Part shown: positions 1,867 through 26,808 of the stretch, piece by piece
How the letters are laid out: every line of letters begins with the position of its first letter
Numbering within the stretch: the first letter of the stretch is position 1
Assembly (NCBI GenBank): GCA_041737355.1
Contig: JBGSRW010000008.1
Coordinates: 24,466-88,465 of the forward strand
Direction of reading: 5' to 3'
DNA: 64,000 nt
Source of the DNA: Patescibacteria group bacterium
GTDB lineage: Bacteria > Patescibacteriota > Patescibacteriia > XYB2-FULL-38-15
Position numbers and translations under genes: made by a program
Notes under the pieces: generated by a model
Told to the model about the DNA's origin: nothing
Seen by the model: only the letters and a program-made list of their open reading frames with translations
Databases searched by the model: none

Positions 1867-3644
1867 TGCGGGAAAAAATTAGAAATTTTTGTATTATTGC
1901 TCATATTGATCACGGAAAGTCGACTTTAGCCGACCGTCTTTTGGAATTTACCGGAACGGTAGCTAGGCGGGATATGAAAGATCAAATGCTTGACATGATG
2001 GATCTTGAACGCGAAAGGGGAATTACCATCAAGCTTCAGCCGGTGCGCATGGATTACAAAGAACATATTTTAAATTTAATTGATACGCCAGGACACGTCG
2101 ATTTCAACTATGAAGTCTCTAGGTCACTTGCCGCCGTGGAAGGCGCGCTTCTTTTGGTTGATGCGACGCAAGGTGTCCAGGCCCAGACGCTCGGTAATTT
2201 ATATTTGGCACTGGAACAGAATCTAACAATCATTCCGGTAGTCAATAAAATTGATCTTAAAAATGCCGAAGTGGAAAAAACCGTCCAGGAAATTACCGCC
2301 CTGATCGGCTGCAAAAAGGAGGAGGTAATTTTGGCTTCGGGGAAAAGCGGGGCCGGAGTTCCGGAAATTTTGGAAGCAGTTGTTAATAAAGTTCCTTCGC
2401 CAAAAGGAGAAATAAGTAAACCGCTGAGGGCGTTGATTTTCGATTCAAAGTACGACGACTACAAGGGAGTCGTCGCTTATGTCAGAGTTGTGGACGGCGA
2501 AGTAAAAAGGGGGGATAAAATATATTTGGCGGCCACCAAAATCGAAAGCGAAGTTTTAGAGGTTGGATATTTTAAACCAAAGTTTGTTCCGGCCGGAAAA
2601 TTATCAGCCGGGGAAATCGGTTATATTGTGACCGGGCTCAAGGAAATAGAAAGATGCCGGGTCGGCGATACTATAACGGTTCACGATCCGGATCTGACAG
2701 TCCAAAGTTTACCGGGGTATAAAGAAGTTAAACCGATGGTTTTTGCCGGAATTTTTTGCAAGGAAGGGGACGATTTTCCGAAACTGCGCGAAGCAATTTT
2801 AAAATTAAAATTGAACGATGCGGCTCTGACTTTTGAAACCGAGCAGTCCAAGGCGCTCGGCTTCGGTTTTCGCTGCGGTCTTTTGGGTTTGTTGCATCTT
2901 GAAATTGTGGAAGAGCGTCTGCGGCGAGAACATAATCTTGACGTGATTGTTACCGTGCCGTCGGTAGCGTACCGTATTACCAACAATAAGGGAGAAGTGT
3001 TGATTATTAAAAGTCCGTCGGAATTGCCCGACATGAGCCATATCAAATTGATCGAAGAGCCGTGGATTAAAATTGATGTGGTTTCTCCGAGCACCTACAT
3101 CGGCGGTATCATGCAAATGGTGCAGGAAAAGAGGGGAGTATATATCGACACGGAATATTTGGATGCCGACCGGGTTATCTTGCATTATGAAATTCCTCTC
3201 TCGGCAATTCTTGTGGATTTTTACGATAAATTAAAAAGTGTGAGCTCCGGCTATGCTTCATTGAATTACGAATTTTTCGGATATAGGGAGGCCGATGTTT
3301 TGAAAATGGATATTTTGGTGGCGACCGAACCGGTTGAGGCGCTCGCGACAATCGTCTACCGCGACACGGCCCAGGATGTCGGGCGGAGAATTGTCCAGTC
3401 TTTAAAAAAAGTTTTGCCGCGCCAGATGTTTGAAGTTAAAATCCAGGCGGCGCTTGGCGGGAAAATTGTCGCCTCGGAACACTTGCCGGCGATGAAAAAG
3501 GATGTGACAGCCAAGCTTTATGGGGGAGATGTAACAAGAAAGAATAAATTGCTTGAAAAACAGAAAAAGGGCAAGAAAAAGATGAAAGCGTTGGGCAAAG
3601 TTGACATTCCACCTGAGGCATTTTTAGCGGTTCTGAAGAAATAG
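1866..3644 (+). CDS. lepA: translation elongation factor 4 (LepA)
   Basis: 592 aa with a GTPase G1 motif (AHIDHGKST) and DTPGHVDF. The C-terminal LepA-type domain is present. The ATG overlaps the murJ stop (TAATG). Confidence 0.95.
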   Translation: MREKIRNFCIIAHIDHGKSTLADRLLEFTGTVARRDMKDQMLDMMDLERERGITIKLQPVRMDYKEHILNLIDTPGHVDFNYEVSRSLAAVEGALLLVDATQGVQAQTLGNLYLALEQNLTIIPVVNKIDLKNAEVEKTVQEITALIGCKKEEVILASGKSGAGVPEILEAVVNKVPSPKGEISKPLRALIFDSKYDDYKGVVAYVRVVDGEVKRGDKIYLAATKIESEVLEVGYFKPKFVPAGKLSAGEIGYIVTGLKEIERCRVGDTITVHDPDLTVQSLPGYKEVKPMVFAGIFCKEGDDFPKLREAILKLKLNDAALTFETEQSKALGFGFRCGLLGLLHLEIVEERLRREHNLDVIVTVPSVAYRITNNKGEVLIIKSPSELPDMSHIKLIEEPWIKIDVVSPSTYIGGIMQMVQEKRGVYIDTEYLDADRVILHYEIPLSAILVDFYDKLKSVSSGYASLNYEFFGYREADVLKMDILVATEPVEALATIVYRDTAQDVGRRIVQSLKKVLPRQMFEVKIQAALGGKIVASEHLPAMKKDVTAKLYGGDVTRKNKLLEKQKKGKKKMKALGKVDIPPEAFLAVLKK

Positions 3645-5597: not shown

Positions 5598-5930
5598 ATG
5601 GTTCAGGTTCTGATGCTGGCCCTGTTCAGCGTCGCCAAGCGCGACGAACGCGAGGCGAGCGACGAGGGCAGTGAGACCGACGCGGTCGAGCTGCCCGAGG
5701 ATTCGGTCAACTGGCGGGCGGTTCGTTGGCTGGGCGTCGCGAAGATGCCGCGCCGTCGGGGTGGTCGGGCGGCCAACCGTTGCCTTGCCGACATCCCGCC
5801 GCCACCGGTTCGTTTCTCGCGCGAAGGGTTTGACGGACTTCATTCGTGGAAGCGTCAGACTCCGGCCCGCCGTCAGTGGGCCAAGCATCTTCGGAAATCT
5901 TGGGGGCGCGGAAAGAAGGTGGAGGTATGA
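5598..5930 (+). CDS. orphan Arg-rich protein, 110 aa (gene B)
   Basis: SD AAGGAG (5585-5590) sits 7 nt before ATG 5598. Third positions are GC-rich. The stop overlaps the next start (ATGA at 5927-5930). Confidence 0.55.
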   Translation: MVQVLMLALFSVAKRDEREASDEGSETDAVELPEDSVNWRAVRWLGVAKMPRRRGGRAANRCLADIPPPPVRFSREGFDGLHSWKRQTPARRQWAKHLRKSWGRGKKVEV

Positions 5931-13265: not shown

Positions 13266-14999
13266 ATGGCAAGTCCGTTGCTCAATCTTCTGGTGGAAGA
13301 AAAATTTATAGAGAAGGACACGGCGCAGGCAATTGTTGAAGAGAGCCAGAAAACCGGAAAAAGCGTAGAATCAATCATCGAAGAATCCGGCGCCGTTGAA
13401 GAGGAAAAATTGGCCGAAACAAGGGGCCGGATTTTTAATTTGCCATACGCAAATCTTGTCGGCCGGGAAATAAAATTCGAAGACCTGAATATAATCCCGA
13501 AGGACGTAGCGGAAAATAACCAAGTAATATCTTTTGAACAAATCGACGGGGAAGTCAGTGTCGGCATAGTTGATCCTAAAAATATCTCCGCCATGGAGGC
13601 CTTGCAGTTTTTGGCCAAGGAAAAAAATTTTTCTATAAAATATTTCGCGATATCCCACACAAGTTTCAAGGATGCCGCCAAAAAATATGAAATTTTGAAA
13701 AAAGAGGTTGAAAAAGTTTTGGAAATTGCTAAAGAAAGATTTACGTCGGAGGAAAAGGCTATCGAAGAGGTTCCTTTGGGGCAGATTGAGGAAGTGATCA
13801 AAAAGGCGCCCGTTTCCAAGATGGTCGCGATGATAATGAAGTATGCTGTTGACAATAAGGCGTCGGATATTCACATAGAGCCGGGTTTTAAGGAATCCAG
13901 GGTTCGCTACAGGGTTGATGGTGTTTTGAAAGGGAGATTGGCTCTTCCGGCTTACATTCATGCCGCGGTTGTTGCGAGAATTAAAGTTTTGGCAAATTTG
14001 AAACTGGACGAAACAAGAATTCCCCAAGACGGGAGAATTCGTCAGGCAATCGGAGGGAGGAATGTCGATTTTCGTATTTCAACTCTTCCGTTGATGGATC
14101 AGGAAAAAGTCGTAATGAGGGTGCTCGAAACGGCAAGCCGGGCCGCTTCGCTCGAGAATCTCGGTTTCCGCGGTCGGGCGGTCGAAGTTATTTCGAGAGA
14201 GATAAAAAAACCGCACGGTCTATTGCTTGTGACCGGTCCGACCGGGTCGGGGAAGTCGACAACTCTTTATACGGCCTTAAGCATGGTTAACCGTGAGGGA
14301 ATAAATATAGTAACACTTGAAGATCCTATTGAATATTATATCGAGGGGGTCAACCAATCTCAGATAAGGCCGGAAATCGGTTTTACTTTCGCGGCCGGAC
14401 TCAGGGCGCTTTTGCGCCAGGATCCGAATATTATCATGGTCGGAGAAATCCGCGACAGTGAAACGGCTGAACTCGCGATTCACGCGGCATTAACAGGACA
14501 TTTAATTTTTTCGACTTTGCACACCAACGACGCGGCCGGAGCAATTCCCCGCCTGATTGATATGAAAGTAGAACCATTTTTGCTTTCCTCGACGCTCAAT
14601 GCCATTGTAGCCCAGCGTTTGGTAAGAAAAATTTGCCCTTACTGCAAAGAACAAATCGATGCGCCGGAGGAAGTCGTAGCTGATTTCAGGAAAGAATTGG
14701 TTACTGTGCCAAAAAGATTCGTGCCCAAGGATATAGACATAAGCAAAAAGATTTCTTTATGGCATGGAGTCGGCTGCGCCCGTTGCGGAAACGAGGGATA
14801 CAGCGGACGGGTTGTTATTTCCGAAGTTATTGAAGCAACCGAAAATTTGAGGCAAATCATCGCCACGGGTTTTAATATAAAAAGTCTTAATGAGGAAATG
14901 GAGCGGCAGGGAGTTATTTCCATGAAGCAGGACGGATATCTGAAAGTTCTCGAGGGTTTGACGACAATTGAAGAAGTGATGAGGGCAACCCAGGAATAG
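13266..14999 (+). CDS. pilB: type IV pilus assembly ATPase PilB (GspE family)
   Basis: 577 aa with Walker A (GPTGSGKST), Walker B plus Asp box (IIMVGEIRD), a His box (TGHLIFSTLHTN) and a tetracysteine motif (CPYC...CARC). Confidence 0.9.
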   Translation: MASPLLNLLVEEKFIEKDTAQAIVEESQKTGKSVESIIEESGAVEEEKLAETRGRIFNLPYANLVGREIKFEDLNIIPKDVAENNQVISFEQIDGEVSVGIVDPKNISAMEALQFLAKEKNFSIKYFAISHTSFKDAAKKYEILKKEVEKVLEIAKERFTSEEKAIEEVPLGQIEEVIKKAPVSKMVAMIMKYAVDNKASDIHIEPGFKESRVRYRVDGVLKGRLALPAYIHAAVVARIKVLANLKLDETRIPQDGRIRQAIGGRNVDFRISTLPLMDQEKVVMRVLETASRAASLENLGFRGRAVEVISREIKKPHGLLLVTGPTGSGKSTTLYTALSMVNREGINIVTLEDPIEYYIEGVNQSQIRPEIGFTFAAGLRALLRQDPNIIMVGEIRDSETAELAIHAALTGHLIFSTLHTNDAAGAIPRLIDMKVEPFLLSSTLNAIVAQRLVRKICPYCKEQIDAPEEVVADFRKELVTVPKRFVPKDIDISKKISLWHGVGCARCGNEGYSGRVVISEVIEATENLRQIIATGFNIKSLNEEMERQGVISMKQDGYLKVLEGLTTIEEVMRATQE

Positions 15000-15023: not shown

Positions 15024-16109
15024 ATGGCGATAGACATAAATTTGGACAAATATTTGGCGAAAATCCCTTTTTTTAACAGGATTCCGCCGAAAGATTTGGT
15101 TATTTTTTCTCGGCAGTTATCTGTTATGATTTCTGCCGATGTTCCGATTGTTCAGGCCCTCAAGGTTCTTGTCCGCCAAACGGCAAATAATAATTTGAAA
15201 ACGGTAGTGGCTAATCTTGCTGCGGACGTCGAGGGGGGCACAAAATTTTCCGCGGCACTTTCGCGTTATCCCGATACTTTCAGCGATTTTTTCATAAACA
15301 TCGTCCGTTCCGGGGAAACGACGGGAAAACTTGATGAAGTTTTGGACTATTTGGCTACCCAACAGGAAAGAGATTACGATTTATCAAGCAAAATAAAAGG
15401 CGCCATGATTTATCCGGCGTTTATTTTATTTGGGCTTATTGCCGTCGGGACGGTGATGATGATTTTTGTTATCCCTAAATTAACCGATATTTTAAAGGAA
15501 ACGGGAGCGACATTGCCTCTCTCGACGAGAATTTTGATTGGAACTTCCGATATTATGAAAAATTACTGGTGGGCGCTTCTGATCGGTTTGGTAGCTTTTG
15601 TCGGCGGATTAAGATATCTAATTGCCCTGCCCTTGGGCAGGAAATATTGGGACACCATGAAATTAAAGCTTCCGATTTTCGGCCAGCTTTTTAAGAGAAT
15701 TTACATGGTCCGTTTTACGCGCGGACTTTCAACCCTCTTGACCGGAGGGGTGGAAATTGTCGGCAGTTTGAAAATAGCCGGAGCAATTGTTGGCAATGCT
15801 GTTTACCAAGATTTGATTTTACAGACTGTCCGCGAGGTGGAAGACGGCAATCCGATAACTACAGTTTTTGCAAAAAGCAAAGAAATTCCCGTGATGGTAA
15901 CCCAAATGCTCGGCATCGGCGAGCAGACAGGCAAAATCGACGCTATTTTGGCCCGCCTGACGGATTTTTACACCCGCGAAATAGAAAACATGGTCAGAAA
16001 TTTAACGACGATCATGGAACCGCTGATCATGCTTTTCATGGGCGTGGCGGTCGGCATCATGGTTGCGGCGATTATTTTGCCGATGTACAATCTGGCATCG
16101 CAATTTTAG
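15024..16109 (+). CDS. pilC: type IV pilus platform protein PilC (GspF family)
   Basis: 361 aa with a duplicated T2SS-F domain pattern and three TM segments. Confidence 0.85.
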   Translation: MAIDINLDKYLAKIPFFNRIPPKDLVIFSRQLSVMISADVPIVQALKVLVRQTANNNLKTVVANLAADVEGGTKFSAALSRYPDTFSDFFINIVRSGETTGKLDEVLDYLATQQERDYDLSSKIKGAMIYPAFILFGLIAVGTVMMIFVIPKLTDILKETGATLPLSTRILIGTSDIMKNYWWALLIGLVAFVGGLRYLIALPLGRKYWDTMKLKLPIFGQLFKRIYMVRFTRGLSTLLTGGVEIVGSLKIAGAIVGNAVYQDLILQTVREVEDGNPITTVFAKSKEIPVMVTQMLGIGEQTGKIDAILARLTDFYTREIENMVRNLTTIMEPLIMLFMGVAVGIMVAAIILPMYNLASQF

Positions 16110-16204: not shown

Positions 16205-16648
16205 ATGTTTAAAAATAAAAAAGGTTTCACTTTGATCGAATTGTTGGTGGTTATCGCCATCATCGGTCTTCTCTCGACTTTGGCGGTCGTTGCCTTGAGC
16301 AGCGCCAGAACCAAAGCCAGAGACGCGAAAAGAACTGCCGACATGAAGCAGGTTCAGACAGCCATGGAGCTCTATTATAATACTAATAGCGCTTATCCTT
16401 CATGCGCCGCCGGTACATTGGTTTCGGCTTGCGCCGCCTTAGCACCTGATTACTTGCCGGGCGTTTTGACCCTGAAAGATCCGGGTGGAGTTGCCGGTGC
16501 TTGCGCCGATCCGGCAGCAGCGAAATGTAACTACGCCTTTGGTACTGCCGCAGCGAACGAAGGCTATAGAATTACTTTCTGGCTTGAAGGAGCGACCGGA
16601 GATTTGGCTGCCGGAGCCCACAGAGTTACGGCTATGGGAATCCAGTAA
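16205..16648 (+). CDS. pilA: type IV pilin, paralog 1
   Basis: Class III signal peptide KKG|FTLIELLVVIAIIGLL with Glu at +5. SD is AAGGAGGTG. Confidence 0.9.
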   Translation: MFKNKKGFTLIELLVVIAIIGLLSTLAVVALSSARTKARDAKRTADMKQVQTAMELYYNTNSAYPSCAAGTLVSACAALAPDYLPGVLTLKDPGGVAGACADPAAAKCNYAFGTAAANEGYRITFWLEGATGDLAAGAHRVTAMGIQ

Positions 16649-16755: not shown

Positions 16756-17217
16756 ATGTTTAAAAATAAAAAAGGTTTCACTTTGATCGAATTGTTGGTG
16801 GTTATCGCCATCATCGGTCTTCTCTCGACTTTGGCGGTCGTTGCCTTGAGCAGCGCGAGAACCAAAGCCAGAGATTCAAAACGCGTGGCCGACATGAAGC
16901 AGGTTCAGACAGCCATGGAAATGGTTTTCAGCGAAGCCAACAGCTACGCCTTGGCTGGATGCACAACGGCCGGTAATAAGGTCAGCCTCTGCACCACGCC
17001 GCTCTCAACTTATTTGCCGAACGTCGCCAATCTTAAGGATCCGAAGGGGTTAAGCGCTTGCGCCGTAGCTTGTGATGGAACAATCACCGCGGCCTGCGAT
17101 TACTCGGTTAAAACCGTGCCGACTGCAAGTACTTACGAGTTTTGTTTCTATTTGGAAACAGCTACGGGCGATTTAGCGGCCGGAGCCCATAAAGTTACGC
17201 CAGCTGGGATTCAATAG
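16756..17217 (+). CDS. pilA: type IV pilin, paralog 2
   Basis: It has the same prepilin N-terminus. The first 101 nt of the CDS plus 16 nt of the RBS are identical to paralog 1. The C-terminal domain diverges. Confidence 0.9.
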   Translation: MFKNKKGFTLIELLVVIAIIGLLSTLAVVALSSARTKARDSKRVADMKQVQTAMEMVFSEANSYALAGCTTAGNKVSLCTTPLSTYLPNVANLKDPKGLSACAVACDGTITAACDYSVKTVPTASTYEFCFYLETATGDLAAGAHKVTPAGIQ

Positions 17218-17285
17218 CCGAATTTTTGATGCATCAAAACAAAAGCCCTTTTATCAGGGTTTTTGTTTTTTTTATAAGGTTTTTG

Positions 17286-17294
17286 TGCTATAAT
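17286..17294 (+). promoter_or_regulatory. extended -10 promoter (TGCTATAAT) upstream of pilD
   Basis: An exact 9-mer. Confidence 0.5.
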
Positions 17295-17305
17295 TTAATA
17301 ATATG

Positions 17306-17437
17306 CCCCGTTAGAAGTCTTTGACGGAAAAATTTTTTAATAAAATTTTTCCTTGTGGCAGAACGGGGATTATACACGAATTTTTTCTTTTTTAAAAGAC
17401 GCAAATAAACATTTAAAATTATAAACTTCTAACGGGG
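17306..17437 (+). promoter_or_regulatory. pilD leader with a 13-bp long-range inverted repeat and an alternative pairing partner
   Basis: CCCCGTTAGAAGT (17306-17318) is the exact reverse complement of ACTTCTAACGGGG (17425-17437), which ends 1 nt before the ATG. A decoy AACGGGG lies at 17362-17368. There is an inner 9-bp hairpin, GGAAAAATT/AATTTTTCC (17326-17352). Confidence 0.5.
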
Positions 17438-17438
17438 T

Positions 17439-18224
17439 ATGGCGCTAATTATCGTCTTTATTTTTGGCTTAGTCATCGGAAGTTTTTTGAATGTCGTAAT
17501 CTGGAGACTGCATACGGGGGAATCGGCTCTAAAAGGCCGCTCTTATTGTCCGAAATGCAAGCACCGCTTGGATTTTTTTGATTTATTTCCGGTCATGAGT
17601 TTTGTAATCCAGGGAGGAAAGTGCCGTTATTGCCGCGAGTCAATTTCCTGGCAATATCCGTTTGTTGAATTGGCTACGGCCGCGCTTTTTGTCATGGCTT
17701 ATGTAATTTCCGATTTTTCCGCCGAAGGAGGATTGGTCTTGGGTAGGCAACTTTTAATTCTGCTGAAGTATTGGTTTGTTGTCTCCGCGATGATTATAGT
17801 TTTTGTTTATGACGCTAAACATTATTTGATTTTGGACAAAGTAATCTATCCCGCGGCAGCCGTCGCGTTTTTTGCCAGTCCGCTTCTTTCGGGAGACGTT
17901 TGGTGGCGGGGAATTCCGGACGGTCTTTTAGCGGCGGCGATCGGCGGCGGATTTTTTCTTTTTCAATATGCCGTGTCAAAAGGAAAATGGATTGGCGGAG
18001 GGGACGTAAAATTGGGATTTTTGATGGGTTTATTTTTAGGTGTTAAGGGTTTGCTTGTGGCTTTCTTTTTTTCTTATTGCCTCGGGGCCGTCGTCGGGCT
18101 TGGTCTTGTCGCGGCCGGCAGAAAAAACATGAAAGGCCAGCTTCCTTTCGGGACTTTTTTGGCCGCCGGAACCCTTATCGCTTTATTTTGGGCCGAACCG
18201 ATCTTGAAATGGTATTTAAATTAA
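17439..18224 (+). CDS. pilD: prepilin peptidase / N-methyltransferase PilD
   Basis: 261-aa polytopic protein with a CPKC...CRYC zinc motif and the peptidase A24 motif GGGDVKL. Confidence 0.9.
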   Translation: MALIIVFIFGLVIGSFLNVVIWRLHTGESALKGRSYCPKCKHRLDFFDLFPVMSFVIQGGKCRYCRESISWQYPFVELATAALFVMAYVISDFSAEGGLVLGRQLLILLKYWFVVSAMIIVFVYDAKHYLILDKVIYPAAAVAFFASPLLSGDVWWRGIPDGLLAAAIGGGFFLFQYAVSKGKWIGGGDVKLGFLMGLFLGVKGLLVAFFFSYCLGAVVGLGLVAAGRKNMKGQLPFGTFLAAGTLIALFWAEPILKWYLN

Positions 18225-25740: not shown

Positions 25741-26808
25741 ATGCGAATGCCAAAGGGTAGAAGGCCGCACACTGTGCTTTGCGCTAACCGGCGAGCCGGC
25801 TGGCGCTTTGAACAATGGTCGGAGTTGGACCAGTGGAGCCTCGAGGCCGGCATCAGAACATATGCCCTATCAGAGATCGAAGAGCTCGATCCCGTCATCG
25901 CGAATTTCGATGACGAGACGCTGCTTCTCCTGATTTACGGCGGGGACGGAACCCTGCTTCAGATTATGAACAGCTTGCTCCGGCGCAAACGGCGCAAGGG
26001 CAAGCCAAAGCCGAAAATGCCGATCATTGTGCCCGTCGGAGGAGGCACGATGAAACGCCTGCCGCGCTGGGCGCTTTGGAACGGCACGCCGGCTGAAAAT
26101 GCCATGACAGCCCTTGAACTTTTCGAGGGCAAGCGTCTGCCGTACCTGCCTCTTCCCTTGCTAAAAGTGGAGTGGGGTGGGCAATGCTACTTCGCGGTCA
26201 CTCTCATGGCTGGAGCCTTGGTTCGTATCATGCAGGAGTACTCGCGTTTCAAGACAACGCCGGCAATTGCCGGACTTTTTTCCGCCGGAGCCTTGGCCGC
26301 CGCGGCCTTTGACAGGCCAAAGTTTTTCACCAGACTCTACGGGCAAATCCGGGCCAAGGTGACCTCCGACGGAGAGGTTCTCGGGACCGAACGGTTCATT
26401 GTCGTGATTCGTGACGTTCTCGAGGAATTGATTTTCTCGATCAAACCGTACAAGGGAATCTGCGCGCCGGGCCAGTCCTTCTCTCTGGCCTACGCCATCG
26501 ACTACCACGAGGTGGCGCGAAAGTTTCCTTGGATTGTTGCGGGAGCGGTTCCCGGCAACGACCCCCGGTATTTCAATCGGCCGGCAAGTTTAACCGTAAT
26601 CGAGCCGCACGAGGAGATTCCCTTTACGCTCGACGGCGAATACTTTACGGCCAAGCCGGGCGAGACCATCAAGGTTTCCCAGGGGCCGGAAGTAAGAGTT
26701 GCCGTTAACCCGTTCGTTCATCTGACTCTTCTGAAACGGTTTTTGAATCGCGGCAGAAGCTTGAAGGAGGTCGTGAGTTACATTTTTCCTACGCCGAGAA
26801 AGAACTAG
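25741..26808 (+). CDS. DAGK_cat/NAD-kinase-superfamily protein (GGDGT motif), GC-rich
   Basis: LLLLIYGGDGTLLQIMNSLL...MPIIVPVGGGT matches the diacylglycerol/lipid kinase catalytic-domain pattern. It has a strong SD, and its composition differs clearly from its neighbours. Confidence 0.65.
   Translation: MRMPKGRRPHTVLCANRRAGWRFEQWSELDQWSLEAGIRTYALSEIEELDPVIANFDDETLLLLIYGGDGTLLQIMNSLLRRKRRKGKPKPKMPIIVPVGGGTMKRLPRWALWNGTPAENAMTALELFEGKRLPYLPLPLLKVEWGGQCYFAVTLMAGALVRIMQEYSRFKTTPAIAGLFSAGALAAAAFDRPKFFTRLYGQIRAKVTSDGEVLGTERFIVVIRDVLEELIFSIKPYKGICAPGQSFSLAYAIDYHEVARKFPWIVAGAVPGNDPRYFNRPASLTVIEPHEEIPFTLDGEYFTAKPGETIKVSQGPEVRVAVNPFVHLTLLKRFLNRGRSLKEVVSYIFPTPRKN

Follow-up and report, generated by a model that had tools for sequence, protein, structure and literature searches.

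In the stretch of DNA analyzed here (the window, 64,000 nucleotides in length), the prepilin peptidase gene pilD of a type IV pilus operon is preceded by a non-coding sequence of 132 bp. This sequence very probably is a transposable element of the miniature inverted-repeat type (MITE) that was inserted, with a TATG target-site duplication, exactly at the pilD start codon (Table 1). The assignment is based on terminal repeats, a 4-bp duplication, small size and lack of coding capacity, occurrence in many copies, and presence/absence polymorphism. The MITE family apparently has not been described before and is very widespread in uncultivated groundwater and sediment bacteria. For annotation, a false lead is removed: the structure that hides the start codon most probably is the footprint of a transposon and not a dedicated riboswitch.

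A putative mobile element at the pilD start codon

The element is bounded by two 13-bp arms that are perfect reverse complements of each other. These arms had been noted in an earlier inspection of the DNA (the sequence-only reading) as the two strands of a long-range helix ending 1 nt before the pilD ATG, and they were found exactly where it had placed them. Together with the flanking bases the inverted repeat comprises 16 positions (17303-17318 and 17425-17440) including one G/T position. The 13-mer CCCCGTTAGAAGT does not occur elsewhere in the 64-kb window on either strand, and by our own arithmetic about 0.002 exact reverse-complement 13-mer matches are expected by chance in 64 kb. Directly outside the arms lie the two copies of TATG. 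The right arm stops 1 nt short of the working pilD ATG at 17439, from which the PilD N-terminus can be aligned with its relatives. The left arm directly follows the relic ATG at 17303-17305, which opens a frame of three codons (ATG CCC CGT TAG, Met-Pro-Arg-stop). The list of open reading frames (ORFs) contains none of 50 or more amino acids inside the window copy, and Rfam scans of the region at E-values up to 10 and of nine family loci at the gathering score matched only tRNAs. The interior comprises hairpin 1, which the sequence-only reading had located correctly, although its stem consists of 11 bp and not of 9 bp as given there, and the AACGGGG box, likewise reported there and present, which by its sequence looks like a degenerate internal end. 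In addition to the promoter-like site directed toward pilD (Table 1), a second one (TTTAAA-16-TATAAT, 17396-17369, 10 of 12 matches) is located inside the element on the minus strand, facing the pilin gene; the orthologous loci L191 and L193 have not kept it.

The orthologous pilD loci of related genomes included empty as well as filled sites. In L001, the closest relative in the genome collection (PilD 70-72% identical), the extended -10 box TGGTATAAT is followed by 11 nt and the pilD ATG; in L194 (PilD 74% identical) the same sequence is followed by 8 nt and the ATG, and both loci are devoid of the element. L193 (PilD 77%) and L191/L192 (76%) have the same insert of 132 bp, whose site and orientation agree with those in the window, all filled sites having the layout TGnTATAAT, 8 nt, TATG, element, TATG, pilD. 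In the window, these 8 nt separate the -10 box TGCTATAAT from the relic ATG. Presence and absence are clean in the alignment of the loci, with the inserted block bounded by the 13-bp inverted repeats and TATG on both sides. The allele expected from precise excision at the pilD site is predicted to read TAATATGGCGC. PilD identities separate the window, L191, and L193 from L194 and L001. Because the split into filled and empty sites follows these two groups, the sequences point to a single insertion in an ancestor shared by the window organism, L191/L192, and L193, which has been in place since. A PilD relative of more than 77% identity, sought as a closer empty site, was not found in the protein collection besides an identical sequence. 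The copies in the window clade have a drifted right half and no longer possess the second hairpin of the family consensus, which fits the expectation for an old copy.

Elements with the same ends were found in unrelated genomic contexts. Scanning metagenomes for the two 11-nt ends at a spacing of 95-125 nt resulted in at least 124 elements at at least 120 loci; all family counts given here refer to the matches listed. A perfect 4-bp direct repeat flanks 76 of the 124 listed elements, and a repeat with one mismatch flanks 22 more, compared to 0-1 of 124 in shifted controls (Fisher p = 6e-29). The family can be recognized by the signature CCCCGTTAGAA...TTCTAACGGGG plus the 4-bp duplication. Two to four copies each were present on the contigs L093, L174, L175, L102, L146, and L172. 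From an alignment of 30 members of an A/T-rich subfamily, a consensus was derived with the order left end, hairpin 1 (GCAGAAAAATTTT, loop, AAAATTTTTCTGC), AACGGGG box, A-rich stretch, second hairpin beside the right end, and TATAAA/T box. A TATAAA or TATAAT box occupies the place equivalent to 17391-17419 in many family members. Compensatory changes were found in 10 of the 26 predicted pairs of this alignment, mostly in hairpin 1, and family-wide covariation concerned arm positions 12 and 14 as well as hairpin 1. Such covariation is equally expected for inverted repeats in DNA.

The sequence-only reading had also considered an invertible DNA switch, in which the segment 17319-17424, lying between the 13-bp repeats, is inverted by site-specific recombination and pilD is thereby toggled. 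Perfect inverted repeats around about 106 bp with promoter-like sites on both strands inside would suit such a device. However, no invertase or recombinase is encoded by the neighboring ORFs, the flanking genes being a pilin gene and pilD, and the region has one and the same orientation in the window, the independent assembly L070, L191, L192, and L193. The repeats are transposon ends flanked by target-site duplications, and both orientations are represented among the family copies at separate loci, which is predicted by insertion and not by switching at a single locus. The probability of an invertible switch therefore is close to negligible.

Structurally, the pilD element is an ordinary bacterial MITE. 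It shares repeats, duplication, lack of coding capacity, multiple copies, and presence/absence polymorphism with other bacterial MITEs such as RUP, BOX, ERIC, Nezha, and MITEAba12 (reviewed in PMC10969869). Its end sequence is new: a full-text search for the 11-mer retrieved no relevant paper, and a search for literature on MITEs in the candidate phyla radiation (CPR)/Patescibacteria or on MITE insertion at start codons retrieved nothing relevant.

Conservation, predicted folding and expression of pilD

A number of observations weigh against the interpretation of the pilD leader as a transposon footprint or limit it. A transposase partner was not found, as no ends 0.8-4 kb apart enclosed a transposase in about 1.2 Mb of fetched loci and a collection of viral contigs. 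Further family copies are absent from the 64-kb window, and the window copy may be a fossil that is not active in this genome. The promoter-like site at 17391-17419 is a weak prediction that is poorly kept in L191 and L193, and every statement on pilD expression made below is inferred from sequence. Furthermore, the element diverged more slowly than synonymous sites. Based on fourfold-degenerate sites pooled from pilD, pilin 2, and the next minor pilin, the window and L193 share 87% identity in the element and 92% in its left half but 59% at fourfold-degenerate sites (Fisher p = 2e-8). The corresponding values are 78%, 87%, and 61% for the window and L191 (p = 5e-4), and 81%, 88%, and 63% for L191 and L193 (p = 4e-4). 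This is unexpected for a neutral relic and leaves room for a cis-regulatory role. The intergenic DNA upstream is conserved as well, with 75 of 85 positions shared by the window and L193, and the constraint may not be specific to the element. Only three orthologues carry the element.

Lone ends beside long ORFs in L138, L096, and L085 also were not associated with a transposase. Apart from two mini-elements in L198, a 14-mer scan of the viral contigs yielded isolated matches that probably are due to chance. Transposons of the IS1380 and piggyBac type generate target duplications of 4 bp (or 4-5 bp) and have ends starting with CC or CCC. The 13-bp piggyBac end CCCTAGAAAGATA resembles CCCCGTTAGAAGT. 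This group is a possible candidate for parentage, although no transposase was recovered. In contrast to these transposons, the target here is not TTAA; TAAA, TGAA, TTGA, and TATG dominate.

The RNA from 17300 to 17460 is predicted to fold with -42.1 kcal/mol (z = -4.5), and none of 200 shuffled sequences folded as well. In this fold the paired arms cover the start codon, A17439 being paired with a predicted probability of 0.96 at 37 C and still 0.88 at 55 C. According to the sequence-only reading, the AACGGGG box competes with the right arm for CCCCGUU, giving two mutually exclusive folds. This pairing is possible, but forcing it resulted in -30.1 kcal/mol compared to -42.5 kcal/mol for the terminal helix. 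With a disadvantage of 12 kcal/mol the predicted alternative is no thermodynamic competitor, and a two-state switch is not supported, although this pairing could form first during transcription. A thermosensor, proposed in the same reading, is contradicted by the helix being formed up to 55 C in the prediction. Were transcription to begin at the upstream promoter, which is conserved, a very stable helix would enclose the start codon. The occluding helix of the proposed translational riboregulator is in this respect plausible, and three orthologous loci share a conserved leader. However, the arms of this helix are the ends of a transposon, and its modules occur throughout the family.

An ancestral, purpose-built leader acting as a dedicated riboswitch or RNA thermometer of pilD could account for the stable helix over the start-codon region and for the significant folding energy. 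Against it stand the same modules at at least 120 unrelated loci with target-site duplications, the lack of an Rfam match, and the thermal stability of the helix. Moreover, the leader is restricted to one small clade (3 distinct orthologues) and is absent from L194 and L001 as well as from about 30 further pilD loci of Patescibacteria. That the nearest element-free relatives do without a pilD leader argues against a riboregulator dedicated to this gene, and we regard such an origin as very improbable.

Given a MITE insertion, the following consequences for pilD can be envisaged. The ancestral pilD mRNA probably was leaderless or nearly so, with the -10 box 8 nt before the ancestral start codon. 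Transcripts from the old promoter would now have their 5' end at the relic ATG or no more than about 2 nt away from it and would carry an element-derived leader of 136 nt, the paired ends of which bury the real AUG. We assume that pilD is nevertheless expressed, and three routes are conceivable. Transcription may start at the promoter-like site inside the element, giving a transcript that lacks the left arm and has an open start codon. Alternatively, the helix may be opened by ribosomes translating the relic frame of three codons, or the double-stranded stem may be cleaved by an RNase III type activity, leaving an mRNA with a short leader. As most genes of the window lack a Shine-Dalgarno sequence, the host apparently tolerates start codons that have none. 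The insertion may now be tolerated or even useful as a damper or insulator of pilD expression. With respect to how genes are expressed in compact genomes, the locus offers a natural test of how leaderless or nearly leaderless genes tolerate or exploit a structured insertion of 136 nt before the AUG.

A possible, although doubtful, extension is that the transposon-derived leader is maintained by the host as a translational regulator of pilD. The helix would hide the start codon until it is opened or cut by translation of the relic frame, by a double-strand-specific RNase, or by co-transcriptional trapping through the AACGGGG box. The retention of the element at one site in three diverged lineages, with TATG and promoter spacing intact in all three and the arms perfect in two (the window and L193), is consistent with such a role. 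So is the conservation above fourfold-degenerate sites, which is most pronounced in the left half (87-92%), as well as the very stable helix predicted to cover the AUG. However, covariation in orthologous pilD leaders, which had been suggested as a check in the sequence-only reading, was not observed. The arms differ at one position only, where the left arm of L191 has C in place of T; this change is uncompensated and breaks a pair. Hairpin 1 of L191 retains its stem and has an altered loop. The unfavorable alternative fold and the predicted lack of melting up to 55 C likewise argue against regulation by this leader, as do its absence from the sister lineages L194 and L001, the conservation of the neighboring intergenic DNA, and the small number of three orthologues.

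The best analogy for an arm-arm RNA stem beside a start codon seems to be the Correia elements (CREE/NEMIS) of Neisseria. These are elements of about 100-155 bp with 26-bp repeats that duplicate TA and are co-transcribed with neighboring genes. Like the family described here, they are small and non-coding, have terminal inverted repeats, and are located in many copies beside genes. In contrast to Correia elements, the present family has unrelated ends with repeats of about 13-20 bp starting with CCCC and a 4-bp duplication, and its hosts are uncultivated groundwater and sediment bacteria, the relatives of the window pilD being labelled Patescibacteria. We know of no report on a start-codon-precise insertion of a Correia element. 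A precedent for a co-opted leader is found in PMC2649163, where Correia elements are described as IHF-binding sequences that can give rise to a promoter at either end and that RNase III binds, cleaves, or protects.

Insertion of the family at gene boundaries

The pilD copy is one of many located at gene boundaries. Among the perfect duplications of the 124 listed elements TAAA was found 29 times, TGAA 15 times, TTGA 11 times, TATG 10 times, and CAAG 4 times, with TATA-type and TAAT-type duplications being absent. A long ORF of 92-450 codons starts from the gene-side ATG in all 10 other TATG copies listed, as it does in the window copy. Of the 19 copies with a duplication starting with TG, 16 have a long ORF beginning with a GTG composed of the last G of the element and the duplicated TG. 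The base preceding the far-side duplication in these 16 copies is A in 15 cases and T in one (p = 1e-5), which indicates that the original sites were ATGAA (or TTG). In about a dozen copies, the duplication covers the stop codon (TAA or TGA) of an ORF that runs into the site. At 15 sites, the duplication (TTGA or CTTG) contains the beginning of a -35 box with the sequence TTGAC(A), in many cases followed after 16-19 nt by a -10 box, TATAAT or TAAAAT. These sites include L094, L114, L130, L172, L182, L188, and L189. In 9 of the 10 -35-box copies that can be oriented, the hairpin end of the element faces away from the promoter (p = 0.02). The orientation of the start-codon copies (14:8) is not significantly biased.

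Two explanations for the insertions at start sites were discarded. An outward promoter at one end of the element cannot be the whole story, as both orientations occur. A translated N-terminal extension would be in frame in only 4 of 16 start-site copies, and nearly all of the 16 copies are interrupted by stop codons. Upstream of the far-side ATG, some of the interrupted genes show either a stop-start overlap or an evident Shine-Dalgarno sequence, which indicates that the element can separate a gene from its initiation signals while leaving the ORF intact.

These patterns may be due to the choice of targets, to selection in gene-dense genomes, or to a trait of the element by which expression is preserved. 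It is conceivable, although doubtful, that the family is specialized for gene boundaries and not merely filtered by selection. It would then represent a mobile module that is placed between expression signals and coding sequence with survival of the gene, and tiny, gene-dense genomes could draw regulatory leaders from it; the pilD copy, kept under constraint in three lineages, would be one co-opted example. Such a module could spare genes through processing of the stem or through re-initiation coupled to an upstream ORF. The MITE review does not contain the terms 'start codon', 'stop codon', or 'leaderless' in its text (PMC10969869); consequently, the precision of this family at gene boundaries seems to be undescribed. 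The same review describes Rickettsia palindromic elements, which are small palindromic mobile elements of compact genomes whose in-frame insertions keep genes working. Whereas these elements are translated within the host protein, the family represented at pilD is not read through, and the gene is preserved by a rebuilt start codon.

Several variants of the family were encountered. Minimal versions consist of 29 bp (the two ends only) or 58 bp, tandem units of 65 bp are separated by TCAA, and copies are nested in copies; minimal, nested, and tandem forms are located at L198:2297-2354 and 5697-5725, L172:11108-11241, L072:103-372, and L091:1203-1434. A GC-rich subfamily (L079, L090, L105, L116, L128, L161, L169, L176, and others) has the same 11-nt ends and a different interior (e.g. 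...CACACGGGGCATTAAACCCCGTGTTCGC...), with TAAA as the predominant duplication. One member of 143 bp (L115:2993-3135) holds a complete tRNA-Met (CAT) gene (3019-3093) between its ends and is inserted, with the duplication CTCA, in the anticodon loop of another tRNA-Met-like gene. Judging from these sequences, the disrupted tRNA appears to have a replacement copy as cargo of the element.

Genomic context of pilD

Downstream of pilD, the type IV pilus operon of the window continues with minor pilins, followed by ligA. The PilD relatives belong to metagenome-assembled genomes labelled Patescibacteria/CPR. The hairpin resembling an intrinsic terminator that follows pilin 2 delimits the pilD promoter region on its upstream side and is nearly identical in L193. 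In many other Patescibacteria pilD loci the ATG is located 5-11 nt behind a -10 box that itself follows a terminator, and a Shine-Dalgarno sequence is lacking. A Shine-Dalgarno sequence is also missing from most predicted genes of the window and is strong in only a few (the pilins and the genes at 25741 and 39948), and in several window genes the ATG is preceded, at a distance of 0-10 nt, by a TAAAAT or TATAAT box. This suggests that leaderless or non-Shine-Dalgarno initiation is widespread in the organism.

Table 1. Features of the pilD element and of the surrounding type IV pilus locus in window coordinates
Feature	Position	Strand	Remarks
Probable MITE, 132 bp, non-coding	17306-17437	+	Supported by family ends, flanking duplications, and filled/empty sites
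Left terminal inverted repeat CCCCGTTAGAAGT, 13 bp	17306-17318	+	5' helix arm of the sequence-only reading
Right terminal inverted repeat ACTTCTAACGGGG, 13 bp	17425-17437	+	Perfect reverse complement of CCCCGTTAGAAGT; 3' helix arm
Target-site duplication TATG, distal copy	17302-17305	+	Holds the relic start codon ATG (17303-17305)
Target-site duplication TATG, proximal copy	17438-17441	+	Gives the working pilD start codon (17439-17441)
Hairpin 1, 11-bp A/T-rich stem GGAAAAATTTT / AAAATTTTTCC, 5-nt loop	17326-17352	+	Arms 17326-17336 and 17342-17352
Internal AACGGGG box	17362-17368	+	Direct repeat of the 7 nt that end the right terminal repeat
Promoter-like TTTAAA-17-TAAAAT directed toward pilD	17391-17419	+	9 of 12 matches; inside the element
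Extended -10 promoter box TGCTATAAT	17286-17294	+	TGnTATAAT kept in 5 of 5 orthologous loci, with or without the element
Intrinsic-terminator-like hairpin after pilin 2	17236-17269	+	14-pair stem followed by T run; outside the MITE
pilD, prepilin peptidase, 261 aa	17439-18224	+	Pfam A24_N_bact and Peptidase_A24
pilB-like gene	13266-14999		Type IV pilus operon of the window
pilC-like gene	15024-16109		Type IV pilus operon of the window
Tandem pilin genes (2)	16205-16648 and 16756-17217		Type IV pilus operon of the window

The two tandem pilin genes are identical in their first approximately 40 codons and in the ribosome-binding region (AAGGAGGTGAAAGA) and have diverged in the C-terminal part, a pattern that points to a recent partial duplication or gene conversion. 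In L191, an additional GC-rich hairpin (CCCTGCGGGTGATGGCCCGAAGGGCCA, L191:1285-1340) is located between the pilin terminator and the pilD promoter; it is present neither in the window nor in L193.

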